A stretch of DNA of 62,087 nucleotides from contig NW_021831998.1 of NCBI RefSeq assembly GCF_006345805.1, forward strand, positions 1-62,087, written 5' to 3'. The position numbers were made by a program, and so were the translations under genes. Origin of the DNA: Octopus sinensis (taxonomy: Eukaryota). Positions 15,666 to 62,087 of the stretch are shown in pieces. The first letter of the stretch is position 1. Each line of letters starts with the position of its first letter. A model generated the notes under the pieces. The model was given only the letters and a program-made list of their open reading frames with translations, searched no databases and was not told the DNA's origin.

Positions 15666-16420
15666 GCCTTATTTATGCATGAATAAATATATCCTTGGAT
15701 GTATTTCCTTTGAGAGTTTTAATGCAAATTTCATTTTCTCACATATATATGAATATATTTTGTTTATTTTATTGCATAAGTTAATGTTTAAAGAATGTGT
15801 TGTTACATTGTTTCGCTGTGATTCTTTACAGTATGTAGTGTAAAATATAAACATTTTTCTGGCTGGTGATTATATATGGAATTTTTGCATGCATGGAATG
15901 GAACTATTTGAGATGTACGACTAAATTGAAAGTGTCTTGCGTACGATAAGGGCCGAGTTTATCTGGATCATATTTTGGACTGACAATAACGTCGATATGG
16001 CTTTTATGATTTTGTTTATTTTTTTTATCATACATTGTTCTTCAATTACTATTGATATTGTTTTCAAATTCATACCTGCTTCCTATTTATTTTCATTTCA
16101 AGACTTGAACATTGAGTTTCCACATCTCTCACCGGAAATGTTTGGACAAAAAGAAATTGAGATATCAATAAGAGTACAAATATTGTTCTTTCACTTTTTA
16201 ATAAATTATATTTGTACGTTTTTCTTTTATATCTTTGTCAGTCATTCTCCAGTTGTAAATAACTGGACTTAGCAAGGAATGGATCGCCGGAAAGGATGTG
16301 GTCAACTCTTTCATTATATTTTTCGTTGTACAGTCTATGTTCCGCATACAGAAGTCAGTCCTAAAAAGTTCTCCAATGTTTTATTTTAAATCGGTGAGTG
16401 ATTTTTGCACCAAAATTATA
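15660..16420 (-). mobile_element. Old R4/Dong-type LINE 3' remnant (duplicated at ~36765-37380)
   Basis: Minus-strand traces RLYNEK..VDHILSG.PFLA, CTLIDISI, IVRKTLSI*; colinear second copy. Confidence 0.6.
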
Positions 16421-16829
16421 TTCTATGATCTGGTTAAGTACATATTAGGCTATATTTCTCCGCGAGTAGTTGGTAAGACTAAAACATGTCTGGAATTAAC
16501 CCTATCCCAAATTTCAAAAATTAAAAATTCTTTTTGGTTCACTACATTCACTCTTTATCTCGCTCTTAATGTACGTAATACTTTCACTAAAGTTTCTGAA
16601 GTGTCTAGAATTTTCTATTCCAAGAAATATTCATGCTTCTTATCTCGTTTGAAACTGATAACATTTCTTTTTCTTTCCTCATCTTCTCCCTTTTCTATTT
16701 TTGTTACTATCTTTCATCTCACCCTCACTCCTCCACTCTCTCTTCTTAATTTTCTCTATCTTTCTATCCCTCTCTCTATCACTCCCTCTCTCTCACTCTC
16801 TCTCTCTCATTATTTCAATGAATAACTTT

Positions 16830-17700
16830 ATGATTGTCCAAGCAAAAAGTTTTTTAATTTAGTCTCATGGCATTTTCTGGCCAACCATAAATAGCATAGA
16901 ATATTTAATAGAAGAACGCTTAACGTCATGTATTCTTATTGCAAGCACTTCGGCTCTCTAACAAGCCAGCATAGCACGAAAATACTAAGCAAAACTAACG
17001 GCACCACTGAAGGAAACAGCCGAAAATGTAACTTCAAAGACCAAAGCTGCTGTCCTTTAGGGGGAGATTGTCTACTTAAAGGCGTAGTAAACAGAGCCAA
17101 ATCCCAGATGGACAGCACGGATGAATACAAGATGTACACAGGCTAGGCAGAGAATTCCTTTAAAACGAGACCTTAGCAACTTATGAATTGATTTAAACAT
17201 CTAGGAAACAGATCTACGACGAGCCTAGCTAAACATATATAGCATTTAAAAGGAACAAAGTTTTTATCGTTTGAAATCCATTGGGCTGTCTTGGAAATGA
17301 TGATGCCCATAACAACAGCAGCAACATTACCAACGTGACGACGGAATTCCATACGTAATATCATGGAGAATCCTAGAACACCCAGGCCCCCTCCATAAAC
17401 GGGACCAAGCATTGTAAACTGTGCATAGCTGAACCGGTGAGAATACTAAAGGTCTTCCTCGACCCGGGGAACATTCTTTACTCCAGAACAGCGGTCTTCG
17501 GAACATGTTAACACTTCAGGATATTCCTGCAGGCCTATTGCGATCCACATGACAACAGAGTCATTTACGATTGAGAGCCAAAGGGAGATAACCCCTATTG
17601 CTAGAGAGGCTGTGATCCAATAGGTTTGGGTTTCACGTCCATAAAGCGCTTAGCTTTATGGACGTGAAACCCAAGGTAATCCCATAGACCGGCCTTATCT
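16830..17700 (+). mobile_element. Penelope-like element, GIY-YIG endonuclease remnant
   Basis: IFNRRTLNVMYS...KCNFKDQSCCPLGGDCLLKGVV...MYTG*AENSFKTR...CKLCIAE, the Penelope linker/GIY-YIG pattern. Confidence 0.8.
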
Positions 17701-18224
17701 AACTTTAAATAATATGCTGCTCTATAACTTAGAGAGTTTTATTTCTGATTTATGTGTTACCTACGATATACATACATGTATATATATTTATATATATATA
17801 TATAAATACATATATTTATATACATATATATACACACACATATATATATCTACACATATGATATTTTTATATAAGCTTAAAGCTTATGGTGATCACTGTA
17901 TGTCTAATAGTCTAATAAAGCGACAGACAAAAGGCTTTCTTATTCGCACGGAATTCGAATCCACATCCCTTTGTAAATACGACCAAATGTGTTACCTTTA
18001 CACTTGCTAATAAGCCTCCCTCTTTCTGTCAAGTTTAAGTTCGTATTTGTTTTAAGTAATCAAACTTTCTATATGATTTCGGGGCGAATGTTTTTTTTTT
18101 ATTACGGCGCCATAATAAAACAAAACATTCGCTCCGAAAGCATATATATATATGCATGTGTGTGTGCGTGTGTGTATGTGTGTGTGTGTTTGTGTGTGTG
18201 TATGTATGTATGTATGTATGTATG

Positions 18225-18269
<45 letters not shown>

Positions 18270-18836
18270 TAGATTCTGTTACGAACGTCGTAGACACGCA
18301 ACGTAGTTCTCCAGGCTTGCAGGTATTTGTTTGTGTAACCGTTTCCCTGCATTATACGATCTAGTTGTGCTTCAAGGGCATCCTATTCGTTCGTCGACGC
18401 CTGCGAGCTTGAAGCAGCCACTGAGTGTATCAAGAGATGTATCTCTTGATACAGTCAGATGTATCTGTTGATACTCTAAGAATAGCACAGATTATATCGG
18501 CAGACAAAATGTCGTCAGCATTGGCGGATGGAAACGTTGTATCACGGGATTTCATCGTAAATTACGAATCATAAGCAAGAAGTATCCAAGCAGCGAATGT
18601 TTGATAGAAAGTCTGTCAAACCGATACAGTTAACACTGAGTAAAAATCTTATCCACTTTTGCTGACGAAACTCCCCCACCCGAAATACGCTGTATTTTTT
18701 GGCACCTAACGCTTATACGGCATATTTTCTCAGGACAAAGGCCACAGTCTACGGCGTCTACGGCGTTCTGAACAACACCTCCTAGAGCAAATTAATACAT
18801 ACATACATACATACATACATACATACATACATACAT

Positions 18837-18875
<39 letters not shown>

Positions 18876-20124
18876 GTCAGACAGACAGACAGACGTGTGT
18901 ATAGGTTAAGATTTATAATTAAACGTACTAGTTTCTAATTTCGTGCAAATATGTAACCCAAATTTTTTTTTGTTTTTTTCAAAATCGATGTTGTTTTAAA
19001 ATTGATTTAATTTAGAATATAATTATGTTAACTGGACAGTTGATTATTTTCAGAAGTAAAGAAGTAATCATTTTGATCATAAATTTAATGAAATTGAACA
19101 CTAGATCCATATTCTCGAAACAAACATTCTGAATATAATTATTTTCAGTTGCATTTATTTAAAATAGCTGTACATAGTTTGTTTTTGTTTTTAATTTTAA
19201 GAAATGATATATAAACAACAAAGCTAATCCATTAATGTATGTCGTATTGTTGCTATGTGTAGGTGCTTTCCATGGGTGGCTGTGTTGAGTATAGTATGAT
19301 GTGGGCGAATTAGTTCTCAACTGTTTAATACCCAATATTGCAGAGAAAAACTTACAAATTGCATGGGTATATATTAAATTTATAAAGAGAATATAGAATG
19401 GAAATATATATATAACAATTGCCAATCCAAAACTTAAAATTTAAAATATATTAGCATAACAGCTGCCATATGCGTATCTTCCATTGCTATTATACTTACT
19501 CACTAATCTACTTCAACTATTAGCGGTTCTTCTACTTCCTACACTATTAATACTACAGCGATCTCTAACTGGATTTCTGCACATTTCCACTACTCCACTA
19601 ATCAAGCCCACTTAAGACATCAAACTCTCCTACTCTCATCGCACTTATTCCACGTGATCTCTTTGATCGTGCATTAAACTGTCTGTCTGCTCACTCCTCC
19701 AAGAGCAACGGTCTTATAATTCTCTCACCAGTCATTTTATTTCTTATTGAAACCAACCTAAACACGTTTAAACTAAAAATCCACTGGATTCATCTGTAAC
19801 AGTATAGATTTTTAAAAATTGGTAACACTAGGCAACAAAATTTTTGCTACTATTAGACGAAACGGTGCTCATAGGTAATTTGGGAGCGCTGATTCCGAAT
19901 CTGCAATCATTTTTGTTCTAGCACGTCACATTTTTGCGCTATCATTATTATGCTGCTATCAAAATTATAATAATGTGAAAATTCATGACAAATCAAATGT
20001 ATGTTATGTTAAGCGTAAATTACTGTTATTTGATATAAGAACAATAGCAACTAGGTGAACAAGTGGCTCTAAAACCAATGAAACAAGACAAAAGTGTAAG
20101 TGAATATTATTAATTTTATGTTTT

Positions 20125-20410
20125 TCAAAAATAGCTTTGGCGTCTTCTTTTACGCTTCTGCTGCATATCCGTTTCTCGTTTAAAAAACCAGCAGTAGTCC
20201 GTCAGCATGTTTGTTGTAAGCCTGCCACTGTAGCGCCTTTCTAGCTCTTTGATTTCGTGATGAAGTCGTTCACCCTGCTCATCGCTTACATCACTCATAC
20301 TGAGTGGAAAAAAAGTCAAGATGACAGTGGACGAAATGAATTTTTAGAGACATTCCCAAGTTGCTCATAAGCTTTCGAAAAATCTTTCACAATTGCAACA
20401 TAGTTAGATG
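20125..20410 (-). pseudogene. Chapaev3 transposase, C-terminal part
   Basis: SLKIHFVHCHLDFFP..VSDEQGERLHHEIKELERRYSG..MLTDYCW continues the reading interrupted at ~25295. Confidence 0.88.
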
Positions 20411-20438
20411 AAGTGGCGGTGTGGTAAGTAGCTTGCTT
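20411..20438 (+). mobile_element. 5' head of a tRNA-derived SINE split by two insertions
   Basis: AAGTGGCGGTGTGGTAAGTAGCTTGCTT (A-box region); the SINE resumes at 24899. Confidence 0.8.
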
Positions 20439-22608
20439 TCTTCATTGCGCATGTGTGAATCAGAGTTGTGTTTGATACTGAAGCTGTAAGATGTGTTTTT
20501 GAAGCTGTCTTAAATGGAAGATTTTTGAAACTCAGCTGTAAGGTAAGATTTTTGGTGTCCAGTGGGGACCTGTTGTTTGCCGCAACTATTTTTCACAAAC
20601 AAGAAGTCCTCACTGGATTCTAGTCTACCTGGAGCTGAGTGAATTTTTTTTTTTTCACTTAATTGTGAAAGTTTTTGTATAGGTGGGCGCTTGAAAATAG
20701 TATTTGTCCAGGAATAACTCCGTGGGAATTTTTAGAAAAATTTCAACAATATTGTTCCTGTCAAGGTGTACCTATTAGAAGAAAATTGGAATGATTTTTT
20801 TAACTGTTTAACATTTGCGTTAAAATTTTGGCATGCAGTGCCGAGTGGCCTTTGCTGTATTTTGAACTGTTGCTCTCTCTTCATCTATCTTTTATTAAAA
20901 AAAAACTCTTTATTGAGCTGTTATTTTTCTCCTTCCTTTTTGTTTGAACTTTTTTCTCTTCCTTCATTTTCCTTAGTTATTTTGTATTTTAAAACTGTAT
21001 TTTTGGACTTTTTTAAAAAACATGGCAAATAACAATGGAAAGTTGGTGGAGTGGGAAATTACGCCACCCAAAAGTTGGTTAAAAGAACTTGAAAGTAAGA
21101 CGGTGGTTTTGAAGACCTACTCTAGGACCTTCGACGCCATTGCCGTTTTCATAAAGGATATAATCGAAAGAGAGCTGGCAGAATTTAAGCCAGCGATTAA
21201 GTTTATCTCTCGGGAGTCAAATACGCAACCATGTGGTTGCTGTTTGAATCCCCAGAAGTGGCTTGTGAATTTGCGAGCCAGCCCTGGAGGGCAATGAAAT
21301 TTTGTTTCTTCCAACTTATTGTGGGAAGAAGTTGACGAGAGCCTGGGTATGCGGCTTGCCACCCGGAGTTGAGCACGAAGGGATAGGAGATGCTATCCGC
21401 CGGGGTATGGGTGGCAGTAGCACCAAGCTCCTCAACGTAAATATTCTGCCTCCGGCTTACTGGGGGGAGTCAAAAATTGTTTTGACCCTATGGACCCAGT
21501 CAGCCGAAAGTCTGGTATTTCGAGACTTTTTGAGAATGGCCGGGTCTAGGTATCCGGTAATGCTTGAGGGACGCCCCCGCCCCAATTGTCATCTGTACCT
21601 GGAGCCTGGCCAAATAAATAAGAACTCTCCTCAAGGGCAAAGCAAAGTCCTGGAGCGGTTGACGGAGACCTCTGTAGAGGAAGGAATGAAGGCGGCCGAA
21701 GAGACGAAGGACTCCTCAAAGAAGAGCCGCAAAAGGAAGAAGGTGAGCAATCCTAAGGATGAGGGAGGAGAGGCGAATCTCCCGGTCACGGAAGAGACGC
21801 ACCCTCCCCCAGTCGAGAAGAAAAAAGAGGAAGAGGAGGAGAAACGGGACATTGCCTGCAGTCGGAAACATGGCGCCGGAGTGTCCCCGAGCCTCATCGG
21901 TTGTGTCACCGGCGGGGCGGAAATTGTGCCGCCAACGGTAGAATTGACCCCCTCGGACCCGGAGGACGAAGAACAGTTGGTCTTCTTTTATAGAGGTGGA
22001 GAGGTGGAAAAGGTGGTGGCAGAACACTACGAGGGAGTACCTTTGGCCTTCACACGGGATCCCGAATGGCCTCCACAGATAGCTGTGGAAGTGATAACGT
22101 TGCGCGTGTTACATAGGCTGGAGGGAATAAAAGAGAAATATCGCTCGTGGCCGGGTGACGCCAACTCGGAGCCCGTCTTGATTTTAAAGCAAGCATGGGT
22201 GATGGTGGAGTACATGGACACAAGCGATGATGAGGTGGAAAATTGACAAGAGGTTGAAAAGACTCAGTATTATAAAGTGCAAGAGGCTCAGCGCCTCATT
22301 TGTAATGGACTAGTGTTGATTGTATATTGAATATTTTATTGTATGTTATTGCATGTTATTATTTGTAATGGACTATTAAGTCCAATAATTGTAAAAACTG
22401 TCGTGAGAGGTTCAATACCGCATTTTGTTTTTGTTTTTTCTGTTGGAAAAAAAGAAGAATGATGTTTTAGAGAAGCAGAAAATCGGCGGACGTTTTTTTG
22501 TCTTCTCCCATCAATATCATCCTTGTTTCATCATTCACCTTATCAATGTATGTGTCCAGCCCGCAAGCCTCTCTTTCTAATGCCTTTATGGCAAACCTTA
22601 ATGAAATA
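20439..22608 (+). mobile_element. ORF1-only non-LTR retroelement, copy 1 (Tx1/L1-type gag, no RT or endonuclease)
   Basis: Flanked by direct repeat AAGTAGCTTGCTT (20426-20438 / 22609-22621); 5'UTR, frameshifted ORF 21022-22246, 3'UTR ending AAATAAA. Confidence 0.75.
21022..22246 (+). pseudogene. Gag-like ORF1 (RRM-like region, degenerate CCHC knuckle, charged low-complexity tail)
   Basis: MANNNGKLVEWEITPP..FLPTYCGKKLTRAWVCGLPP..RPNCHLYLEPGQINKNSP; homologous to 23326-24566; frameshifted around 21220-21300. Confidence 0.7.
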
Positions 22609-22632
22609 AAGTAGCTTGCTTACCAACCCATG

Positions 22633-24898
22633 AGTCTTTGAGACTTCCCATAAGTCTTTGTTGTCAGTGTACGCATGCGTCATTTTGATGTGCACTGAAA
22701 AAGACAGTCGGCAGTGTTTAACCTGCCAAAAAGAAGCTGCTGCAAGGTAAGACTTTTGTCTCTTGAGTCCAGTGGGTGTTGTTGTCTGTGGTTATATTTT
22801 TTACAAACAAGTAGTCCTCAGTGGATTCAGGATGTTGGTCTGCTTGCGGTTCAGCAATATTGGGAGCGTATCCTTCAACCAAAAGTTGTTCACTTTTTAA
22901 TAGTGCATGTTTTTACAACAACATTTACCATTTATTGGAAAGCTGTATTTCAAGTGTCCACATTAAGTGAAAATTTTTTTCTCGTTGTGAGAAGTATAGT
23001 TTGGTGGCGTATCCTGCCACCAAAAGTTGTTCGCTGTTTGTGAATAGTGTGCATTTTTACAACTACGTTTACCAATAATTGGAAAGCTGTATTTCAAGTG
23101 AATCAGTCCAGGTTCTAATTGGAATACCATAGGGTTTGGAGTACCTGAACGCCCAGGAGATTTTTTGCTGTGTTTTGTTGAACTATTGTTTTCTTCTTCT
23201 ATTGTGACTTTCTTATTGAACTGTTTGCTTTTTATCTTCTTCCCTTTTGCTTCCTTTTGATTTCTCACTTTTCTTTTTGAAATTTGTGAACTATTTTGGG
23301 GACTTTTTACTTTTTATTTTAAAACATGGCAAAAAATACGGATAAGATTGTAGAGTGGGAGATTGTCCCACCTAAGGAGTGGTTCAGACAGCAAGAGGGA
23401 AGGACGGTGGTGTTGAGAACGTATTCGAAGGTTCTCGACACCATTGCCGTCATCTCCAAGCAGATGAATGAGCAGGAGTTGGTGGAACATATGCTATCCA
23501 TTAAGTATATCTCTAGGGGCGTCAAATATGCAACGGTGTGGTTGCTGTTTGACACTCCAGAGAAAACTCGCAGTTTTGCGAGCCAGCCCTTTGAGGGTAA
23601 AGAAATTTTGTTTCTTCCCACTTATTGTGGGAAAAAATTGATGAAGGCTTGGGTTTGTGGTTTGCCACCCTGAATTGAACCTCAATGGATAGAGGATACT
23701 ATCCGTCGGGGTCTGGGTAGCAGCGGAGCCAGGCTCCTCAATGTGAAAATTCTTCCTACGTATGATTGGGTTGGGTCAAAAGCTGTTTTGACCCTGTGGG
23801 CCCAATCAGCCATGAATCTGGTTATGCCAGATTTTTTGAAAATGGCCGGGTGCAGGTACCTGGTGATTCTTGGGGTCGCCCCTTTCCCAGGTGTCATCGG
23901 TGCCTGGAGCCAAGCCATATAAAGAAAAGCTGTCCTCGGGAATAAAGCAAAGTCCTGGAGATCTCTGTAGAAGGAACGAAGACAGCCGAGGAGACGGAGG
24001 ACTCCTCAAAGAAGGGCCGCTAGAGGAAGAAGGTGAGCAACAATGGGTGCTCAACAAAGGATCCTAGAGATGAGGGAGGCGAGGCGAATCTCTCGGTCAC
24101 GGAGGAGACGCACCCTCCCTTAGTTGAGAGGAAAAAATAGGAAGAGGAAGAGAAATGGGACATTGCTGGCAGTCGGTGACATAGAACCAAAATGTCCCGG
24201 AACCTTGCCGGTAGGGGTTGTGCCTCCGGCAGGGTAAGAGACGCCGTTGGGAGCAATTGTGCCCCCAGCGGTAGAATTGACTACCTCGAACTCAGAGGAA
24301 GAGGAACTATTGGTCTTCTTCTACAGAGGAGGAGAGATTGAAGAGGTGTTGGAAAAGCACCATAAGGGAGTACCTTTAACCTTCACACAGGATCCCGAAT
24401 GCCCTCCGTAGATAGCTGTGGAGCTCATAACGTTGCCCGTGACGTATATGCTGCAGGGACTGAATGAGGAATAACGCTTGTGGCCGGGCGGATCCCGCCT
24501 TGGTCTTGAATGAGGCGTGGGGGATGGCGGAGTATATGGGCACAAGCGATGTTGGTGAGGAATAGTGACATGTGGTTGAAAAGACTCAGTGTTATAATGT
24601 TTATTGTATAATGTTTAATGATTATTGCATGTTATTGTGTTTAAGAGGCTTAACGCCCCAATTCTTAAATGGACTATTAGTCCAAAAATTGTAAAACTGA
24701 AGTAAGAGGTTCATTACCTCGTTTTGTCTTTTTCTGTTAAAAAAAACGAGAGAATTATGTTTTAGAGAAGCAAAAACAGGCGGGCGTTTTTTGTCTTCTC
24801 CTATTAATATCATCCTTTTCATCATTCACCTCGTCAATGTCTTTGTCCAGCCCGCAAGCTACTCTATATCATGCCTTTATGGCAAAATTTTTTAAATA
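22633..24898 (+). mobile_element. ORF1-only non-LTR retroelement, copy 2
   Basis: Flanked by ~24-bp imperfect direct repeat AAGTAGCTTGCTTACCAACC-CATG (22609-22632) / AAGTAGCTTGCTCACCAAACACATG (24899-24923); same organisation as copy 1; ~140-bp tandem repeat in the 5'UTR (22855-23100). Confidence 0.75.
23326..24566 (+). pseudogene. Gag-like ORF1 with intact CX2CX4HX4C zinc knuckle
   Basis: MAKNTDKIVEWEIVPP..FLPTYCGKKLMKAWVCGLPP*; 23892-23933 reads CHRCLEPSHIKKSC; several stops and frameshifts. Confidence 0.72.
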
Positions 24899-25294
24899 AA
24901 GTAGCTTGCTCACCAAACACATGGTTCCGGATTCAGTCCCACCGCATGGCACCTTGGGCAAGTATCTTCTACTATAGCCTCGGGCCGAACAAAGCCTTGT
25001 GAGTGGATTTGGTAGACGGAAACGGAAAGAAAGCACGTCGTATATATGTATATATATATATATGTGTGTGTATTTGTGTGTGTGTGTATATGTTTGTGTG
25101 TCTGTGTTTGTCCCACCAACCTCGCTTGACAACCGATGCTGGTGTGTTTACGTCTCCGTAACTTAGCGGTTCGGCAAAAGACCGATAGAATAATTATTAG
25201 GCGTACAAAGAATAAGTCCTGGGGTCGATTTGCTCGACTAAAGGCGGTCCTCCAGCATGGCCGCAGTCAAATTACTGAATCAAGTAAAAGAGAC
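24899..25294 (+). mobile_element. Body of octopus-type tRNA-derived SINE
   Basis: B-box-like GGATTCAGTCCC, CCTTGGGCAAG core, internal (TG)n, 3' CCAGCATGGCCGCAGTCAAAT..AAGTAAAAGAG. Confidence 0.9.
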
Positions 25295-26688
25295 AATTTT
25301 TTTAAAAATGCGAAGAGAAACATTTTCCCAAGCAGCTTTCTCTACTGGGTTTAATTTTTCTTGAAAAAGTTCATCACAGATTAGTGTGCGAATTTCTGGT
25401 CCATTAAAAACACTAGCTTTGATCTTAGCTTCACTCTTACTAGAAACAAATTTTTCCCTGAGATATTTGAATCCTACACCGCCTTCATTTATGGCCTTAA
25501 CAAAATTCTTAAATAAGCCAACTTTAATGTGTAAAGGGGGAAGATAAATTTTCTGCGAGTCAACTAAAGAGATATATTTAACGTTGTATTTCCCTGGAGT
25601 GAAATCACTTCTCTTTGGCCACTCTTTTTGATCAAAGCGATGCTTGTCATCTCTGCTTGTCCAAAAGCACAAAAAACACTGATGCGTTGTATACTCCATT
25701 TGCAACCCAAGAAGCAAACCAATAACTTTCGAGTCCCCGCATATTTTCCACTTGTGTTCAGAATGCTTAATCAAGTGCAAAATTTTATCCCTTGATTCAT
25801 AAGTTTCCTTTAATCCTACAGTATGTGCTAGTGGTATTGAAAGTTTTTGATTGCTATTATGCAGCAAAGCAGCTTTTAAGCTTGCTTTTCTGGAATCTTT
25901 GAAGAGTTTCCATTCTTCAGGATTATGGCTGTACCCCACCTCACGCAGGAGTCCTTCAACATCAAAACAAAAACAAATACCGTCTTTCTCCGTAAAAAAT
26001 CCATGTAATTCTGTATGCAGTTTTCGAAAATACGAGCATTATACATCATCGTGTTAAAGATCCCATTGTTTCAACCTGGAGCTAAGTAGTTCTGACTTTT
26101 CTTTTGTTAAACCCAAGTCTTTAACTAAATCATTTAACTCAAGTTGACTTAATAAATAAGGAACATTTTTGAAGATCCTGGTTCATCACAGGGATGTGCT
26201 GCATCACTAGGCACGACTTCAATTGAAGTAGATGCAGTGCTTTCTTCACTTAAACTATCTTTGTCAAAAGATGAAAGAGGTTCTGGAATTTAAATATTTT
26301 CAGCACTATGAGCAACTGATATTAAAGCTGAAGGGCAATCTGGATAAATAATCTTGGATTTGTTCTTCTTTGAGAAACCTGTGATGTTAGTTAAGCAGAA
26401 ATAACAATCGGTATAGTGGTTTGTTGGTTCGCGCCATATCATTGGTAATGCAAATGGCATACTTTTCCATTTACCATTCAGCCATTGGGTTAGTGCTATA
26501 GAGCAGATTTTGTAACAAACATGAGGCCCCCACAGTTTACCTTGATACCCAACTTTGCACCCAAAGCAAAACTTGTAAGCATTTAAAAATTTCTTTGTAA
26601 GCATATTTCTCTGATCTTTTGGTGCAAATTTTCCACACACTTAACAAAAGCTGTTCGGGTGATTAACACAAATGTTTCTGCTCATCAT
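25295..26688 (-). pseudogene. Chapaev3 transposase, N-terminal and central part
   Basis: C*VCGKF..GCKVGYQGKLWGPHVC..MPFALPMIWREPTNHYTDCYFC..; ICGDSKVIGLLLGLQ..CFLCFW..LPPLHIKVGLFKNFVKA; stops and frameshifts. Confidence 0.88.
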
Positions 26689-28009
26689 AAGTACATACAG
26701 TAATAACCTAAATCAACACTCAAAGAAGCCTATCAGTTAACTAAAATATAAAATATAAAATGTAAATCATCAAAATATATTTCTCAAAAAAAAAAAAAAA
26801 AAAATTAAAATTATAGAATGTACTGAAAGTATGGCTATCATGAAACAGTTTTTTCCATCTCTAAATTTCAAACATTGATCACTTTAATAAATAACAAAAC
26901 TACTTTTCATATAACCTGGCTCCCTATTTGATGTCCTTTGTTATGTCCTGCAGTTATCAAGAAAAGTGAGTGTGTGTGGTTTACTATAATAGCCTACCGT
27001 GAGGACAACTTTACTATAATTACAGCGATAACGAAGTAAAATGAATTCTCATCTTTTGTAGCAATTTAACAGGTATCCTACATTTTCTTCTGATAGCACT
27101 TAACTTTGTTTCACTGATAAGTTTATGAATGAAAATCGAAAGCAAATAGCCTACTACTTTGTCAATATTATCAATTGGTTGGAAAATCTGATGCTTTGAA
27201 TAAGTAAAAATTCTACACGTGCTGTCTGAAAACTGATGTCACATTGGGATTCAGCACCTTCAAGTTACTCTAAATCAGCTCAAAATGTTTAAATAGTATG
27301 ACAATTTTTCTTTCTTTTTAGCCCAGTGTAATTAAACTCAAGTAAACACTGGACAGAAAATGAACACGTATCCTTTTCCTTTTTTTTTTTCAATTATTTT
27401 TTTAATAATTATTATTTTAAAAAATTAACAAAGACTTCGCAAAGATATATTTACTCAAGCATCTATATGACATTTAGTGAAGCATCTATACAAGGTATCA
27501 AATTTGGGGGAAGGGTTTAAGCCGATTACATCGACCCGAGCGCGTAAGTGATACTTATTTAATCAATCCCGAGAGGATGAAATGCAAAGTCGACCGCGGC
27601 AGAATTTGAACTCAGAATATGAAGACAAATGAAATACCGCAAAGCATTTTACCCGGCGTGCTAACGATTCTGCTAGCACGCCACCCTTAGTTAAACATAT
27701 ACATATGAACGCAATGGAAACGTTTTCGGAAAACTTTTAATTACCTTCAGTTATCTCCCTTAGTGAATCTAACTTCCTCTGCAAGGGAAATAACTCCGGC
27801 TTCAATGTAAAGGGAGGTAATTCAGATTTTAACTACGTAACATTGATTTTAAATTTACACAGTTAAACTAACAAGGAAGTTTTTGTACAACTCGTGAAAC
27901 AAAAAGAAAAAAGGCATAAGTTACTTTTGTTCAATTCACAGGTTATTAACAATTTTCTGACTGATGCGCATGTTTTTTTTTTACGGATTCATACATACAG
28001 TCATACCAT

Positions 28010-29290
28010 ACGAGGCTAAACATCGATCCAAAATGCCTTTGAATGTCGCATCATTTCCCTTCGGCAACATTTTCTAGCTATCAAGTGTCGAAGTGCATCC
28101 CTTGACCAAGCTTGCATACGAGAGGCTGATAGCCTCATAAGACTTGGAAGGCAGCTCCTCGAGCAACGCTCTTTGTCTGATAACCTAGAATACATGCCCA
28201 AAGAAGTCGCACGACTCTACCGCAGCATATCATCAGATGAAAGGAAGAACCTATATGAACAGAAGACTTTGCATGGATATGTCAGTAGAAAGCTCCGTGA
28301 TGATAGTAACCTCGATCACCAAAGAAGTTTATCATGGATTTGTTGCCGGATTACTACCTCCCACTTTCAAGGGTATGCGTTTGCAAACCAGGAACAGGAA
28401 ATATCAACCAAGTACCTGATACATAAAGAGATAGAGATGCAAGAAAAACTGTAAGTTGTGACAAGCGATGCAGACTTTGTGGAGTTCATACTGAAGATGC
28501 CACGCATATCATAAGCAATTGTCCGAAAATGTCATCACGATATTATCTATCGATGAGACATGGTGTTGTAGCTAGAATACTCTACAATGAAATCCGTCGG
28601 AAGGATAATCCCGAGGACAAAGAAATAAGAACCGCAAGCCATGGTAGAAGCCATAGCCACTAACAATAAAAATGTAAAGGAATACTGGTGAAATGTATCA
28701 GGGAAGACCTCAATAAAATGTAAGCACACCAGACCTGATATAAAGGCTTGGGATAGAGAAGAGAGACTGCACAAGTGAGGAAGTTAGCTGCCCAGCAGAT
28801 GTTAACATAAAGCTAAAGATAGTGAAAAAGAGAATACCTACGTTGAACTATTGAGAAATCTGCGTTGAACTATTGAGAACTATTGACAATCCAGATTACA
28901 AGTTCAAGTTTATATCTGTAATTACTGGGAAACCGGTATATGTATTACACTGCCTAAATACCATTCTTGAGATATTTAGGCTTCTCAAAACCAGAAAAGA
29001 GAAAGCTAGTTCGAAGGCTACAGATCCAATCCATCACTGGAACTGTAAAAATTTGTAAAACTTTCCAGAAGTTTATCATTTAAATATATATGAGCATATC
29101 CAGACGTGCAACTATATGCATGAGATTACATACATAAAACATACAAATCTGCACATCCATACATGCATACATACATACATACATACATACATACATACAT
29201 ACATACATACATACATACATACATACATACAAAAATACCCTGTTGATGATGTTGAAATTTCAATGAAGGAGTCTTGGATCGAGGTTAGAA
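28010..29290 (+). mobile_element. R4/Dong-type (RLE-endonuclease) LINE, 3' part
   Basis: NQEQEISTKY..RCRLCGVHTEDATHIISNCPKMSSRYY..RH..RPDI motifs across frameshifts; 3'UTR with (TACA)n. Confidence 0.85.
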
Positions 29291-31040
29291 AGAGTGAAGT
29301 GCGTGCGAATGGGACCGCCCCCCTCCCCCCATTACCACCCTAATCAACTCCGCTGCGCAAGTTTTGTTCTCACACCACTTATCTCAACTTCTCCCCAATT
29401 AAGTCCTTCGGCAACGAGCAACAGATGACGGGAGCAAGAACTGTATGATGTTATAAGCCCTTAGTCTGGATCCTGCACATGGGTGACGCAGGCAATACGG
29501 CCGACTCGATGTTACCCTGGGACTGCACATCGATTCGTGTTCTACCTGCTTGACCAGGTGGACCTTTTAAGGACTAGCACCGCCTGCCTCAGCTGAAGAG
29601 AGGCCTATGAAATGTGGTCTAAAAGACGCCAATCCTTTTTCGCCTGGCCAGGAAATCGCACCTGGTAGGCCATTCCACACTGTACTCGATGATTAAAAGG
29701 AAAATCCTCTCATTTTTGCTACCTGCAACATACGAACCTTGATACACCATGATGACCACGTTGGGGCCACGCTCATCGCCTCTGAACTCAAACGATACAA
29801 TGTGGATATCACTGCACTCAGCGAAACAAGATTTCCTGATGAATGCTTTCTCACTGGGATACATATACTTCTGGAAAGGCCTTCCTCAATGCAATAATAG
29901 AATTCATGGTGTTGGATTTACTGTCCGTTCGTCATTACTGGAGAACATCTCTTCGATTGCAACCGATATAAGTGAAAGGCTGATGACTTTCCGAATTCTC
30001 CTCAGTAACAAAGTGCACGCCACTATCTTCAGTGTCTATTCCCCAATATTAGAGACTATTAAAGACACGAAAGATACCTTCTACGAGTCTCTTAACTCGG
30101 TTAAGAGAAGGTTACGTCGCACAGACAAAGGTATTCTTGGAGATTTCAGTGATAGAGTCGGTTTCAATGTAAACATCTGGCCCAGAGATCTCGGTTCTCA
30201 TGGGATGGGCAAAATGAATACCAATGGTCTTCACCTTTTGCGCCTGTGTGCCGAGCACAATCTCGTGATTACGAAGACCATTTTTCAGCAGCCCAATAAA
30301 TACAAGTTCTACTGGAGACATCTTCGTTCCAAGATGTGGCATCTCCTCGATTACGTGAGCGTTCGTGAACATGATCAGAAAGTTGTCCTCCATATCAAAT
30401 ATATGCGTGATGCAGAATGTTGGACCGATCACCGCATGTATGTGTCCTCAGATCCGCCCTCCTGCCACGAAAAGCAAAGTGTTTCCCATACTCAATGTGG
30501 CCTGTTTTTCCAGTACAACGAAACAAGATAAGCTTCAAGAAAACCTCGCTACTGCCTTCCCACTTCTTCCAGCTCTTTCAGTTCCAAAAGAGCTCCATCG
30601 CAATATGGAAAAAACATTGAGAATTATATTGAACAAATCGAGGTCGAACAGAATGAATTCAATTCACTCTGGGACTCTGCCATGTCCATCATTTGACAAA
30701 CTACTGAATCCACTCTTGGAAAAACCCACATGAAGAACCTTGATTTGTTTAATGAATCTGCAGACATCATCCAAACTCTTTTGTAGACGAAGAACCATGC
30801 TCATAACGCCCACCTCACAAATTCTTGTACCTTAGCCTCAAAGTGGTTTCTGAAGCACAAAATGTCTGGTGGCTCCGCAACTCCGAAAAGATCCAATGTT
30901 TGGCTGACGAAAATAAATCTTGCGAATTCTACAACTCGATTAAACATATCTTCGGTCCTTCGCACTGCCCGATTGCACCTGCCCGTGCCGCTGACGGCAA
31001 TACTTTAATTAAAGAAAAAGAAAAGATCTTTGCGCAATAG
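29290..31040 (+). mobile_element. RTE-clade LINE fragment (APE endonuclease region)
   Basis: GYIYFWKG..GVGF..ISERLM..VYSP..ILGDF..GLHLLRLCAEHNLVIT..WRHLRSKMWHLLDY..DAECWTDHR. Confidence 0.9.
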
Positions 31041-32020
31041 ACTTCTGCTTACAAATTCAGAAACCAACAACAAATATTGAACGTGAAACTTTACAGAAGC
31101 TCAGCTGTTCATTTAAATAACGGTGCGTATGATTCTGGTTTTCAGGCTGGACACACGCGCTTATTCTCCTCGCTTCATTCCAAGAATTTCCAAGAAACAT
31201 GCGAGAACGGTATTACGAGGCAATGGCTTTAGTAAGTTAACATGGCTCGTCTGATATTTTCATTTTATAACATTTAATTCAAATTGACCAGAAATTAAGG
31301 ATAACTTATTTCATGATCTGGGAGCAAGGTATTTCAAACTGAAACTAAAATAACTTTTGAATGATGTTAAAACGAGACACGTTTTCGATGGAGTTGCTTA
31401 CTCATTTGCCCATCCATGAGTATCAGAAGAAACGATCACCATGTGGCCATATCTTGATAATATTACATGCAGATGACCCGTTGAGAATAGATCAGATTGT
31501 TTGCGATGAAGGAAGATGGACAGTGAAGTTGTACAGGATGAAGTAAAACGGCATTTTCATGGGAGACATGTGAGTGCACCTGGAGTGATGTCGCGCTTGC
31601 ACGAAAACAGAATACATAACAAATCCCATGCTATTATACTGGCTGCCAGTGCATTTTCAACAAGAATCCGTCTTTTTCAGAGAAGGTAATGAGAACGAAG
31701 CGTTAGAGAGAGACAGAGCTGCCCGTCGTAACACACCGCTGCCATCATGGTTTGTCCTTAGTAAATGATACAGAAATACAAGACGCCGGTTGCATATTGA
31801 TATTCCTTATCATTATGTGTGTGACAAAGGGATGACTGTTTGGAAACTACACGAGAGATGAGTAGAGAGAATTATTTCAAGACTTTAGTTTCCAAGTCCA
31901 AAGCAAGAAGAAATATTTTATCTGAGATTGTTATTGTCATATTTTGAAGAAGCTCGCACTTTTTGATGATCTTAAAACAGCTGATGGTGTACGATATAAG
32001 TTATGATGAAATAGCTGTCA
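31040..32020 (+). pseudogene. Degenerate Helitron RepHel coding region (Rep motifs and linker)
   Basis: PRNMRERYYEAMALV (upstream of Rep motif 1), HEYQKKRSPCGHILIIL (cf. EFQKRGLPHAHIL, motif 2), HNKSHAII.LPVH, QESVFFREGNENEALER, EEIFYLRLLL; motif 2 repeated at ~34020-34090. Confidence 0.8.
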
Positions 32021-32578
32021 TTGTTTTAAAAAAACACAAGTGGAAATATACTTTATAAATGAGTGCGACCCATTTTTTCAACTCACAGCGGGAAATGTTA
32101 CATTTAAGAATTATTGGAATTAAAAAAAAAAAATTTTAACTCCAAAGTCTTTAGATACGAAATTTATCAATGGTTGCTTTAATTGTTTTGACAAAATTTT
32201 TGGTATTTTTCGCTTGTGTGTAGTACGTACGTGTAAGCAAACACACATACATTCACATGCACGCACGCACATAGACACACAACCATACATATGTATATAT
32301 ATATATATATATAGCAACGAATTGCCTCACCACACACCGAATTTAGAAATAGCAGTCAAAGAGTTATAGCTATTCTTTCTACTAAAAGGGAGATCTCAGT
32401 AAAAACACAGCACTTGAAAGGCAAACACAGACAGGTAAGAGAGAATGAAATAACGGCAATCTATCATACAATTTTAAGTCACCTACGGACGTACGTTTCG
32501 AAATTAAGTTTTAGGAAAGCATAAGAATTAGATAATTATATCTTACCCAACTTCTTTTCTGTGGATGAAAGTTTGTGT

Positions 32579-32669
32579 CCTACGCTGATGAGAAAAGAAG
32601 TTGGGTAAGATATAATTATCTAATTCTTATGCTTTCCTAAAACGTAATTTCGAAACGTACGTCCGTAGG
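32579..32669 (+). ncRNA. Type I hammerhead ribozyme, copy 1
   Basis: CCTACG-CTGATGA-GAAA..(~60-nt stem II region)..TTTC-GAAA-CGTACG-TC-CGTAGG; predicted cut after C32663. Confidence 0.82.
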
Positions 32670-33160
32670 TGACTTAAAATTGTATGATAGATTGCCGTCA
32701 TTTCATTCTCTCTTACCTGTCTGTGTTTGCCTTTCAAGTGCTGTGTTTTTACTGAGATCTCCCTTTTAGTAGAAAGAATAGCTATAACTCTTTGACTGCT
32801 ATTTCTAAATTCGGTGTGTGGTGAGGCAATTTGTTGCTAAACCCTTAATTGCTTAGTATTACTTAAACTTTCCTCGAATGAGGCTTTTACATGCCGAAAT
32901 CTACTTGGTTTAATTAATAATTATTCCAAATTAATTAATTTCACCCTATATTGTTACTGATAACCATATTTCATCTCAGTAATGACCACAGCATCTTGTC
33001 TTGGCTACACGCGGGTGGGAAGGGGCTGGTGACACAAACTTTCATTCACACTTTGAATTTGGTGGTACTGGTAACGGCTTTAGCTCGCTCTGATACTGAG
33101 TTGAGATGATGCCTTCTAGTTTCTCGAAATTTAATATACAATTATTCATAATTGTAGTGT

Positions 33161-33251
33161 CCTACGCTGATGAGAAAAGAAGTTGGGTAAGATATAATTA
33201 TCTAATTCTTATGCTTTCCTAAAACTTAATTTCGAAACGTACGTCCGTAGG
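33161..33251 (+). ncRNA. Type I hammerhead ribozyme, copy 2
   Basis: Same architecture; predicted cut after C33245. Confidence 0.82.
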
Positions 33252-33538
33252 TGACTTAAAATTATATGATAGATTGCCGTCATTTCATTCTCTCTTACCT
33301 GTCTGTGTTTGCCTTTCAAGTGCTGTGTTTTTACTGAGATCTCCCTTTTAGTAGAAAGAATAGCTATAACTCTTTGACTGCTATTTCTAAATTCGGTGTG
33401 TGGTGAGGCAATTCGTTGCTAAACCCTTAATTGCTTAGTATTACTTAAACTTTCCTCGAATGAGGCTTTTACATGCCGAAATCTACTTGGTGTAATTAAT
33501 AATTATTCTAAATTAATTAATTTCACCCTATATTGTTA

Positions 33539-57280: not shown

Positions 57281-60200
57281 CGGTTTGAACCGGTTTGTCG
57301 GCACCGTATTACATCTTTGTCGGCATACTCCTTGATCTCTATCGGCACCGCCTTTGATCTCTGTCGGCACCATCTTTGATCTCTGACATTCCTGACATTC
57401 CTGACATTCTGACATTCCAGACATTCCTGACATTCCTGACTTTCCTAACATTCCAGACATTCCAGACATCCCTGACATTCCTGACATTTGAACCGGTTTG
57501 ATCAGGCTTGATCCAGTTTGAACAGTTTTGATCCGATTTCAAGCGGTTTGATCCGTTTTATCCGGTTTGAACCGGTTTAATCCGGTTTGAACCGGTTTGT
57601 CAGCACCGTATTTGATCTTTGTCGGCACACTCCTTGATCTCTATCGGCACCGTCTTTGATCTCTGTCGGCACCATCTTTGATCTCACATTCCTCACATTC
57701 CTGACATTCCTTACATTCCAGACATTCCTTACATTCCAGACATTCCTGACATTCCAGACATTCCAGACATTCCTGACATTCCTGACATTCCAAATATTCC
57801 TTACATTCCTGACATTCCTGACATTCCAGACATTCCTGACATTCCTGACATTCCTGACTTTCCTGACATTCCAGACATTCCAGACATCCCTGACATTCCT
57901 GACATTTGAACCGGTTTGATCAGGCATGATCCAGTTTGAAACGTTTTGATCCGGTTTCAACCGGTTTGATCCGGTTTTATCCGGTTTGAACCGTTTTGAT
58001 CCGGTCTGTACCGGTTTGTCGGCACCATATTTGATCTTTGTCGGCACACTCCTTGATCTCTATCGGCACCGTCTTTGATCTGTCGGCACCATCTTTGATC
58101 TCTGACATTCCTCACATTCCAAACATTCCTGACATTCCAGACATTCCTGACATTCCTTACATTCCTGACATTCCTTGCATTCCTGACATTCCTGACATTC
58201 CAGATATTCCAGACATTCCTGACATTCCAGACATTCCAGACATTCCTACATTCCAGACATTCCTGACATCCCTGACATTCCAGACATTCCTGACTTCCAG
58301 ACATTCCTGACATTTCAACAGGTTTGGATCGGTTTAATCGAGTTTGAACCGGTTTGATTCGGATTTATCCGGTTTGACCCGCATTGAACCGGTTTGAACC
58401 GGTTTGATCTGGTTTGAACGGTTTGTCGGAACCGTATTTGATCTTTGTCGGCACACTCCTTGATCTCTATCGGTACCGTTTTTGATATCAGTCGGCACTG
58501 ACTTTCATCTCTGACATTCCTCACATTCCAAACATTCCTGACATTCCAGACATTCCTGACATTCCTGACATTCCTGACATTCCTGACTTTCCTGACATTC
58601 CAGACATTCCAGACATTCCTGACATTCCAGACATTCCTGACATCCCTGACATTCCAGACATTCCTGACATTCCAGACATTCCAGACACTCCTGACATTCC
58701 TGAATTTCCTGACATTCCAGACATTCCAGACATCCCTGACATTCCTGACATTTGAACCGGTTTGATCAGGCTTGATCCAGTTTGAAACGTTTTGATCCGG
58801 TTTGAACCGGTTTGATCCGATTTGAACTGGTTTGATCCTGTTTCAACCGGTTCGATCCGGTTTGATCCGGTTTGATCCGGTTTGAACCGGTTTGTCGGCA
58901 CCGTATTTGATCTTTGTCGGCACACTCCTTGATCTCTATCGGCACCGTCTTTGATCTCTGTCGGCACCATCTTTGATCTCTGACATTCCAGACATTCCTG
59001 ACATTCCAGACATTCCTGACATTCCAAACATTCCTGACATTCCTGACATTCCTGACTCTCCTGACATTCCAGACATTCCTGACATTCCTGACATTCCAAA
59101 CTTTCCTTAGATTCCTGACATTCCTGACACTCCAGACATTCCAGACATTCCTGACATTCCTGACATTCCAGACATTCCAGACATCCCTGACATTCCTGAC
59201 ATTTGATCGGGTTTGATCAGGCTTGATCCAGTTTGAACCGTTTTGATCCGGTTTCAACCGGTTTTATCCGGTTTGAACCGGTTTGATCGGTTTTGACTGG
59301 TTTGTCGGCACCGTATTTGATCTTGTCGGCACACTCCTTGATCTCTATCGGCACTGTCTTTGATGTCTGTCGGCACCATCTTTGATCTCTGACATTCCTC
59401 ACATTCCTGACATTCCTGACATTCCAGACATTCCTGACATTCCTGACATTCCTGACATTCCTTACATTCCTGACATTCCTTATATTCCTGACATTCCTGA
59501 CATTTCAGACATTCCAGACATTCCTGACATTCCAGACATTCCTGACATTCCAGACATTCCTGACATTCCAGACATTCCTGACTTTCCTGACATTCCAGAC
59601 ATCCCTGACATACCTGACATTTGAACGGTTTGATCAGGCTTGATCCGGTTTGAACTGTTTTGATCCGTTTTCAACCGGTTTGATCCGGTGTGATCCGTTT
59701 TGATCCGGTTTGAACCGGTTTGATCCGGTTTGAACCGGTTTGTCGGCACCGTATTTGATCTTGTCGGCACACTCCTTGATCTCTATCGGCACCGTCTTTG
59801 ATCTCTTTCGGCACCATCTTTGATCTCTGACATTCCTCATATTCCTGACATTCCTGACATTCCAGACATTCCTGACATTCCTGACATTCCAGACATTCCA
59901 GACATTCCTTAAATTCCTGACATTCTTACTTTCCAGATATTCCAGACATTCCTGACATTCCAGACATTCCAGACATTCCTGACATTCCAGACATTCCTAA
60001 CATCCCTGACATTCCAGACATTCCTGACATTTCAGACATTCCTGTCATTCCAGACATTCCTGACATTACTGACATTCCTGACTTTCCTGACATTCCAGAC
60101 ATTCCAGACATCCCTGACATTCCTGACATTTGAACCGGTTTGATCAGGCTTGATCCAGTTTGAACCGTTTTGATCCGTTTTGAACCAGTTTGATCCGATT

Positions 60201-62087
60201 TGAACCGGTTTGATCCGGTTTCAACCGGTTTGATCCGATTTCATCCAGTTTCATCCGGTTTGAACCGGTTTGATCCGGTTTGAACCGGTTTGTCGGCACC
60301 GTATTTGATCTTTGTCGGCACACTCCTTGATCTCTATTGGCACCGTCTTTGATCTCTGTCGGCACCATCTTTGATCTCTGACATTCCTCACATTCCTGGC
60401 ATTCCTGACATTCCAGACATTCCTGACATTCCAGACTTCCTGACGTTCCTGACATTCCTGACATTCCTTACATTCCTGACATTCTGACATTCCAGACATT
60501 CCTGACATTCCTGACAGTCCAGACATTCCTTACATTCTAGACATTCCTGATATTTGAACCGGTTTCATCCAGTTTCATCCAGTTTGAAACGGTTTGATTC
60601 TGTTTGAACCGTTTTGATCCGGTTTGATCCGGTTTGAACCGGTTTGATCGGGTTTGAACCGGTTTTATCCAGTTTGTCCTGGATTGAACCGGTTTGAACC
60701 GGTTTGATCTGGTTTGAACCGGTTTGTCGGAACCGTATTTGATCTTTGTCGGCACACTCCTTGATCTCTATCGGTACCGTTTTTGATTTCAGTCGGCACT
60801 GTCTTTGATCTCTGACTTTCCTCACATTCCAAACATTCCTGACATTCCAGACATTCCTGACATACCTGACATTCCAGACATTCCAACATTCCTGACATTC
60901 CTGACATTCCTTACATTCCTGACATTCCTGACATTTGAACCGGTTTGATCAGGCTTGATCCAGTTTGAACGGGCTTGATCCGGTTTAAACCGGTTTGTCC
61001 GATTTTAACCGGGTTGATCCGGTTTGAAACGGTTTCATCCGGTTTGAACCGTTTTGATCCTGTTTGAACCGGTTTGTCGGCACCGTATTTGATCTTTGTC
61101 GGCACACTCCTTGATTTCTATCGGCACCTCTTTGATCTCTGTCGGCACCGTCTTTGATCTCTGACATTCCTCACATTCCTGACATTCCTGACATTCCTGA
61201 CATTCGTGACATTCCTGACATTCCTGACATTCCTTACATTCCTGACATTCCAGACATTCCAGACATTCCTGACATTCCTGACATTCCAGACATTCCTGAC
61301 ATTCCAGACATTCCAGACATTCCTGACATTCCTGACATTCCTGACATCCCTGACATTCCTTACATTTGAACCGGTTTGATCAGGCTTGATCCAGTTTGAA
61401 CCGTTTTGATCCGGTTTGAACCGGTTTGATCCGATTTGAACCGGTTTGATCCGGTTTCAACCGGTTTGATCCGATTTCATCCGGTTTCATCCGGTTGAAC
61501 CGGTTTGATCCGGTTTGAACCGGTTTGTCGGCACCGTATTTGATCTTTGTCGGCACACTCCTTGATCTCTATCGCAACCGTCTTTGATCTCTGTCGGCAC
61601 CATCTTTGATCTCTGACATTCCTCACATTCCTGGCATTCCTGACATTCCAGACATTCTTGACATTCCAGACATTCCTGACGTTCCTGACATTACTGACAT
61701 TCCTTACATTCCTGACATTCCTGACATTCCAGACATCCTGACATTCCTGACATTCCAGACATTCCTTACATTCCAGACTTTCCTGATATTTGAACCGGTT
61801 GATCAGGCTTGATCCAGTTTGAAACGGTTTGATCCCGTTTGAACCGGTTTGATCCGGTTTGAACCGATTTGATCGGGTTTGAACCGGTTTGATCTCCTTA
61901 GGGACACCTCGTTGATCTCTTTCGGCACCCTCTTTGATCTTTTTCGGCACCCTCTTTGATCTCTTTCGGCACCCTCTTTGATATTTTTCGGCCACCCTCT
62001 TTGATCTCTTTCGGTACCCTCTTTGATCTCGTTCGGGACTCCTCTTTGATCTCTTTTGGCACCATCTTCGATCTCTTTCGGCACAAG
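57281..62087. repeat. Complex higher-order satellite: blocks of 10-mer GA(A/T)CCGGTTT, 22-mer GATCTCTGTCGGCACCGTCTTT and 9-mer GACATTCC(T/A)
   Basis: About 11 ordered units of ~300-550 bp, then a pure 22-mer array from ~61900; runs off the window end. Confidence 0.97.

Follow-up and report, generated by a model that had tools for sequence, protein, structure and literature searches.

Retrotransposons of the Tx1 clade, such as Tx1L, Keno, Kibi and Koshi, carry an apurinic/apyrimidinic-type endonuclease (APE) and enter multicopy sequences, transposons included, in a sequence-specific manner; the targets named in the consulted parts of two papers are rRNA, tRNA and snRNA genes, microsatellites, telomeric repeats, DNA transposons and long terminal repeat (LTR) elements, with no short interspersed element (SINE) among them (PMC4494074, PMC4640811). 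In crocodilians, the Tx1 element Tx1-Mar and its non-autonomous passenger SINEU-3 share one site in another repeat, and the consulted sections report a 16-bp duplication, tandems that sandwich the duplication and 5'-truncated copies that show independent insertion; in that system insertion is into a Mariner DNA transposon, and the passenger is a SINE that derives from snRNA and is non-coding (PMC4494074). HAL1, HeT-A and Ag-Sponge have the first open reading frame (ORF1) of a long interspersed element (LINE) and no ORF2, need an autonomous relative and exemplify repeated origin; the excerpts consulted place them in the L1, Jockey and CR1 clades, name none from Tx1 and have HeT-A inserting at chromosome ends (PMC5786205, PMC5753468). 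For octopus, L1-Tx1 families are listed in two surveys, the consulted portions of which hold no analysis of target or passenger (PMC13282606, PMC8967140). Here we describe two units in Octopus sinensis that lie head to tail in the head of a SINE, within 62,087 nt of contig NW_021831998.1 (this whole stretch is called the window, and positions are counted from its first letter). They are decayed copies of a long-lived, genome-wide ORF1-only non-LTR family, which inserts into a fixed SINE sequence, unlike HeT-A, and which, unlike the crocodilian pair, combines a SINE-head target with a passenger that has a conserved ORF1. The original prediction, made from the window alone, had proposed a SINE-targeting ORF1-only family with an APE-reverse transcriptase (RT) partner at the same site, an interpretation that is supported by the results below.

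The head of a highly abundant SINE holds the fixed insertion site, GGT^AAG(T/A)AGCTTGC. In the window, the order is SINE head, target, unit 1, target, unit 2, target and SINE body (ending at ~25292), and AAGTAGCTTGCTT stands at 20426, 22609 and 24899 (3 matches vs. 0.06 expected from shuffles), the last two being the positions at which the target had been seen to return and the last having one mismatch. The 3' end of the SINE head remnant would correspond to the first nick, GGT^AAG. AATAAA is present at the junctions, as had been noted, but its last two A's (22609-10) are also the first two bases of the target. The target duplications, originally put at 13 and ~24 bp, are revised to about 16 bp for unit 1, of which the window displays 13 bp and two duplicates of the locus (L172, L173) all 16 bp, and to 18 bp for unit 2, for which the longer figure was too high because the extra bases recur inside the 5' end of a copy of the same subfamily (L023). 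The two units are 73% identical across the ORF and 3' untranslated region (UTR; 1644 aligned nt), and their 5'UTRs are indeed strongly diverged, with a sole common block of 92 nt at 76%. No homology to an endonuclease (EN) or RT was detected in either unit (best tblastx E value for ORF2, 0.54), in agreement with the prediction. The single ORF1 that each was said to carry can be traced in both but is intact in neither: in unit 1, it is disrupted by frameshifts near 21214 and 21284-21311, and its knuckle (CHLYLEPGQINKNS) is degenerate; in unit 2, it is disrupted by a stop at 23671, a frameshift near 23872 and additional stops downstream. Unit 2 does have the predicted CX2CX4HX4C knuckle codons at 23892-23933, though not in the frame of its ATG.

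Genome searches covered the best-scoring 40 to 150 matches each, which favors young, well-preserved copies; 3'-end queries excluded the target sequence, and the protein query was blind to flanks. Behind the unit 1 3' end, the 13-nt target came next in 25/30 loci (30 of 40 scored; 1703 candidates) and, without the window itself and four co-duplicates, in 20/25, three others having only AAGT. Behind the unit 2 3' end it came next in 24/30 loci (22/28 minus self and a duplicate). With the short-element protein query (30 of 150 listed loci), target and SINE body followed downstream in 29/30, and upstream of the same 30 loci lay the SINE head (25) or the end of another element (4), with element lengths of 2090-2412 nt. 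The tabulation of 3' flanks that had been proposed as a check thus returned non-random flanks. Twelve 5'-truncated copies of 40-1100 nt stand directly behind a SINE head or the end of another element, six with 8-10 matching bases and six with 15-17 (two rows that were unrelated and two copies with internal deletions are left out of this tally). The short units, with a constant 3' end, 5' truncation of varying extent, a duplicated target and no terminal repeats, are products of target-primed reverse transcription of the non-LTR type. Young copies stand in tandem in 7/50 cases, although ~1% of exact sites are filled. Since tandems are so common among young copies, the pair in the window may be two separate insertions or one template jump; the pair itself is co-duplicated, but both of its subfamilies also have many solo insertions, as the original reading of more than one co-duplicated unit would have it.

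By exact pattern, the uninterrupted SINE-head 27-mer, which marks empty sites, occurs 31,152 + 27,782 times in the genome, and filled junctions number 309 + 188 (reversed controls, 0). By hand calculation, the ~59,000 exact target sites are about 1e-5 of oriented positions, the rate of arrival by chance. A preference for the TAAC variant of the SINE was rejected (188 filled per 27,782 vs. 309 per 31,152), TAAC being simply a major subfamily. The target SINE has a high copy number and a short-repeat tail; its head gave no tRNA match with Rfam or ARAGORN, and what we take to be its A box, B box and CORE-like block were recognized by eye from general motifs and a consensus.

When 90 of the 309 junctions were inspected by motif, 68 had a short-type end, 10 a LINE-type end and 12 neither. 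For 60 junctions, flanks of 6 kb were available; 18 short-type copies among them were bounded by the target on both sides; all had ORF1, and EN or RT was found in none of these 18. Eleven full-length short copies (~2.0-2.5 kb) were mostly 65-83% alike (one pair, 93%). ORF1 is ~410 amino acids (aa) long in intact short copies, and natural frames of 396-439 aa with CCHC were present in 18 of 50 loci picked for open frames. The ratio of nonsynonymous to synonymous substitution rates (dN/dS) in 28 non-independent pairs among 8 natural copies was 0.13-0.31 (median, 0.17) over the N-terminal 200 codons, with dS up to 2.2; it was 0.29-0.63 in the remaining, C-terminal part and noisy (0.22-1.7) inside the youngest subfamily. 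Judged by these ratios, ORF1 of the short family is under purifying selection, and the proposed check for an ORF1 kept without ORF2 bore the prediction out. Named homologues come from Octopus species and Argonauta. Separately, one short-family ORF1 is annotated as an uncharacterized O. sinensis gene (P0001), so that cephalopod annotation currently passes such copies as unnamed genes. Three runs presumed to be RNA gave contigs with thin coverage of most of a young copy and no start, end, strand or splice joint.

From an alignment of 111 homologues, the N-terminal 205 residues of ORF1 are predicted (predicted local distance difference test [pLDDT], 91.8) to fold into two domains resembling the RNA recognition motif (RRM), at 14-102 and 104-185, ahead of the knuckle (Z score of 7-9 and root mean square deviation of 2-3 per domain), and an ESM Atlas result agrees; a whole-ORF1 model from 14 sequences had a pLDDT of 35, the reliable model being that of the N-terminal half. 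The knuckle is a zf-CCHC and the sole part that matches nucleocapsids; Pfam returned nothing useful on the window's own frames. By its predicted fold, the short-family ORF1 is a type I LINE ORF1p, and the earlier term gag-like holds in the loose LINE sense but not for a capsid Gag. An LTR element or retroviral gag was ruled out by the lack of terminal repeats (no terminal direct repeat common to both units in a unit-versus-unit comparison) together with the predicted RRM-RRM N-terminal half. HAL1 proper was rejected as well, there being no Transposase_22 match but a zf-CCHC and predicted tandem RRMs instead; HAL1 is not known to have a fixed insertion site.

The autonomous APE-RT element that had been predicted to share target and 3' terminus was found. 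An RT C terminus lay upstream in 2 of the first 30 junctions, and extension gave two 5.46-kb copies of a ~5.45-kb LINE, 84% alike, each with the SINE head on one side and the SINE body on the other. ORF1 of the LINE has a zf-CCHC and ORF2 has Exo_endo_phos, RVT_1 and zf-RVT; the closest solved structure to both halves of ORF2 is human L1 ORF2p, and both frames are uninterrupted in one copy (467 and 1130 aa), which has the expected catalytic motifs. Its copies are 96-100% identical over ~1.8 kb, marking a young family. A target-free LINE 3' query was followed by AAGTAG in 30/30 loci, 27 of which continue straight into the SINE body, a preference above the >20% of flanks in one repeat that serves as the criterion in the consulted part of PMC4494074; in 20 refetched loci, the head or a tandem end lay upstream in 19 by pattern and in 1 by eye. 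SINE flanks of 26 young LINE copies were 90.3% alike, compared with 98.3% for the elements, and the copies must therefore have entered different pre-existing SINEs. The presence of APE, RT and a C-terminal zinc finger places the LINE in the L1 group. It likely belongs to the Tx1 clade, since ORF1 of the short elements, to which that of the LINE is homologous, fits type I (tandem RRMs predicted, zf-CCHC matched), which the consulted text of PMC5203782 presents as consistent with Tx1 in non-mammalian animals. The ORF1s of the LINE and the short family are homologous (26% identity; tblastx E values down to 1e-18). Head-to-tail arrays, including one triple, mix subfamilies and the LINE (L238, L220, L287, L290, L296, L236), and the tandems of L287, L290 and L296 combine LINE and short elements.

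A hairpin with a 4-bp stem was found in the final ~41 nt of 56/90 ends, compared with 0-2 in control windows and a mean of 2.8 (maximum, 8) in shuffles; it occurs in the compensatory forms TGTC/GACA, CGCC/GGCG and GGCT/AGCC, a covariation count that relatedness of the ends inflates. No poly(A) follows the elements at the junctions. Of the 48 young full-length copies compared (28 of the short type and 20 of the LINE), 18 are followed by a SINE other than the TAAC variant, and in 16 of these TAAC stands upstream, often with an extra T, whereas pure local duplication predicts none. That the upstream variant follows the element over the local SINE suggests that target bases are carried on the RNA. 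An odd upstream variant is common to L236 and L243, on different chromosomes, and absent from both downstream sites. Young LINE copies and copies of the young short subfamily have their 5' leader variants in common, the extra-T form among them. Taken together, these sequence features make it very probable that the short elements are mobilized in trans by this LINE lineage.

Several observations weigh against this picture, besides the bias of the searches toward young copies and the inflated covariation count. Among older copies, about 1 in 5 lack the target (5/25, 6/28), and four off-target copies showed no flanking duplication. A head is missing upstream of many truncated copies, an absence that could be due to later deletion or another route. 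Plain local duplication accounts for 2/18 junctions (L205, L301) and also for L207 and L288, which have shared private variants, so that the RNA-borne leader would not always be used. Nucleotide sequence common to the LINE and the short elements is limited to the terminal ~41 nt, at 78-81% (E values of 0.002-0.006), and in the ORF1 tree a long branch separates the window family from the LINE. The LINE/short split is therefore old, and the parent, possibly the true driver, of the window family may be another LINE lineage. On one alternative view, an unsampled SINE-targeting LINE, nearer in ORF1 and 3'UTR, would move the short elements, and the LINE found here would merely share the site. The brevity of the common end, the long branch, the several LINE 3'-end variants at the site, the restriction to 90 of 309 exact junctions and the 12 unclassified ends among them all leave room for it, but none of the 18 target-bounded short-type copies has EN or RT, and the young short subfamily and the LINE match in their leader variants and occur in mixed tandems; we regard this alternative as unlikely.

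Targeting itself would be dispensed with if element and SINE body formed one composite RNA that was inserted at random through the SINE tail by the partner LINE of the SINE. The SINE body after nearly every 3' end, the many headless truncated copies and a weak poly(A) signal that would permit read-through are what such an RNA would give, but truncated copies of many lengths lie behind a SINE head, and the flanking SINEs, from three SINE variants, are far more diverse than the elements. Moreover, one LINE copy (L199) sits with a 16-bp duplication in a non-SINE repeat that offers AAGTAGCTT, an insertion that points to recognition of the bases immediately 3' of the nick. Mobilization via the SINE tail was rejected on the truncated copies behind heads and the diversity of the flanks and is very improbable as a general account; some headless copies may remain to it. 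A reading without any family, in which the units came from a LINE by local deletion or make up a single tandem or segmental duplication, is barely credible: co-duplicates of the pair stand at four other places and internally deleted LINE copies exist (L135, L291, L304), but there are many subfamilies at 65-93% identity, all of about 2.0-2.5 kb, the natural CCHC frames are under purifying selection, and the units, at their low mutual identity, each have solo relatives.

If the short elements are moved by this LINE, insertion might proceed as follows. The short RNA would encode its own ORF1p (predicted RRM-RRM-CCHC) and recruit LINE ORF2p via the 3' hairpin region, and the LINE APE domain would nick the bottom strand at ^AAGTAGCTT. 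Reverse transcription would begin at the element end, probably aided by a few read-through target bases as primer, because the target supplies the end of AATAAA and the insertions lack a poly(A). A second nick would fall ~15-17 nt downstream of the first. The RNA would start within the upstream target copy of its donor, and the cDNA end, with target-like bases from the donor's 5' flank, would anneal at the overhang; because the cDNA end brings these bases, the 5' duplication would often be of the donor variant. Insertion would regenerate the target site and therefore lead to head-to-tail arrays like that in the window. In R2Bm, target-derived bases at the RNA 5' end likewise pair with upstream target DNA, according to the consulted part of PMC6895275, and in R1Bm accurate initiation needs downstream target sequence, according to that of PMC7265360; these rDNA elements were tested by experiment, whereas the RNA-borne leader in octopus is read from junction variants.

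A second ORF1-only lineage (L305-L328, e.g., L306, L320 and L323), of about 1.4-1.95 kb, occupies the same site in 22/24 loci, mostly within an older SINE variant, AAGAAGCTTGCTTCCC. Its ORF1 is nearer to that of the LINE than to that of the window family, which suggests that it arose separately. L314 was rejected as an RT-bearing partner of this lineage, its RT piece being an antisense insert. We give about even chances to the full arrangement, in which a recently active Tx1-type LINE would track one site through successive subfamilies of the dominant octopus SINE, splitting its promoter boxes, and would serve at least two independently born ORF1-only lineages, several-fold more numerous than itself and with their own RNA chaperone under selection, the shared 3' hairpin and target bases on both RNA ends making insertion precise and self-renewing.

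The separate parts (a site-specific Tx1 element with a passenger, tandems, ORF1-only elements) are already known, and the octopus system may have been described before; no SINE-targeting LINE or Tx1-derived ORF1-only element was found in the consulted portions of the literature searched, which included PMC4640811, PMC8869645, PMC5035012, PMC4758252 and PMC5203782 and had most subscription journals and Repbase Reports outside its scope. The system adds a SINE to the known targets of sequence-specific retrotransposons and a likely Tx1-derived member to the few known ORF1-only elements. It amounts to a parasite on a parasite in a third parasite, with hundreds of ~2-kb ORF1-only elements at one spot of a SINE and a LINE that likely supplies the enzymes. 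Why the passenger retains ORF1 for so long (dS up to 2), though SINEs need none, is a testable question: natural intact passenger and helper copies exist, and the minimal shared signal is ~40 nt. The joining of 5' ends in an APE-type element has left a natural record in the junction variants, and a young site-specific LINE that has a short, defined target also holds interest for targeted insertion.

The features of the array and its host gene are listed in Table 1. A splice-donor-like AG|GTAAG is present in the 5'UTRs of both units (20543-20547 and 22747-22751). Across full-length copies it occurs 90-125 nt into the diverged 5'UTRs in 7/19, compared with 0/19 in the next 200 nt; the copies noted for it besides the window are L124, L125, L126, L150, L151, L164 and L166, and no spliced copies of short elements were identified.

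Table 1. Positions of the array components and of the interrupted host gene in the window
Feature	Positions	Strand	Remarks
Host DNA-transposase gene, C-terminal part, beyond the SINE	20125..20409	-	Continuity judged by eye from general motifs
SINE head remnant, A-box-like part	20410..20425	+	First ~9 nt gone; from sequence
First target copy	20426..20441	+	13-bp match in the window, 16 bp in duplicated locus versions
Unit 1, full-length ORF1-only element, decayed	20442..22608	+	81-83% identity to siblings L105 and L106
Unit 1 ORF1, two frameshifts	21022..22246	+	Degenerate knuckle at 21587-21628
Unit 1 terminal hairpin, TGCC-N5-GGCA, common to the LINE	22581..22593	+	
Second target copy	22609..22626	+	18 bp in common with the third copy
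Unit 2, full-length ORF1-only element of a different subfamily, decayed	22627..24898	+	
Unit 2 ORF1, broken	23326..24568	+	3' limit set by alignment to unit 1
Unit 2 terminal hairpin	24872..24884	+	
Third target copy and SINE body (B-box-like part, core, microsatellite, tail)	24899..25292	+	
Host DNA-transposase gene, broken, upstream part, split by the SINE	25280..26038 (region to 26700)	-	

The host transposase has RAG1-like look-alikes (scores of 0.89-0.91), which are a lead only. It may be of the Chapaev/Transib type. The segment from ~16400 to 32000 is duplicated at four other places (L171-L174) with shared flanks and 91-99% identity; three of these duplicates have deletions that take out most of unit 2, and both units are whole only in L174. 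Adjoining the duplicated segment there, L174:7963-8565 is ORF1 of another related element, with 28% identity to the short family. Elsewhere in the window, a complex satellite of 9-bp and 22-bp units within higher-order repeats of ~430 bp occupies 57281-62087, and inverted repeats of 249 bp, with three arms that are 99% complementary, lie at 32312-33421.

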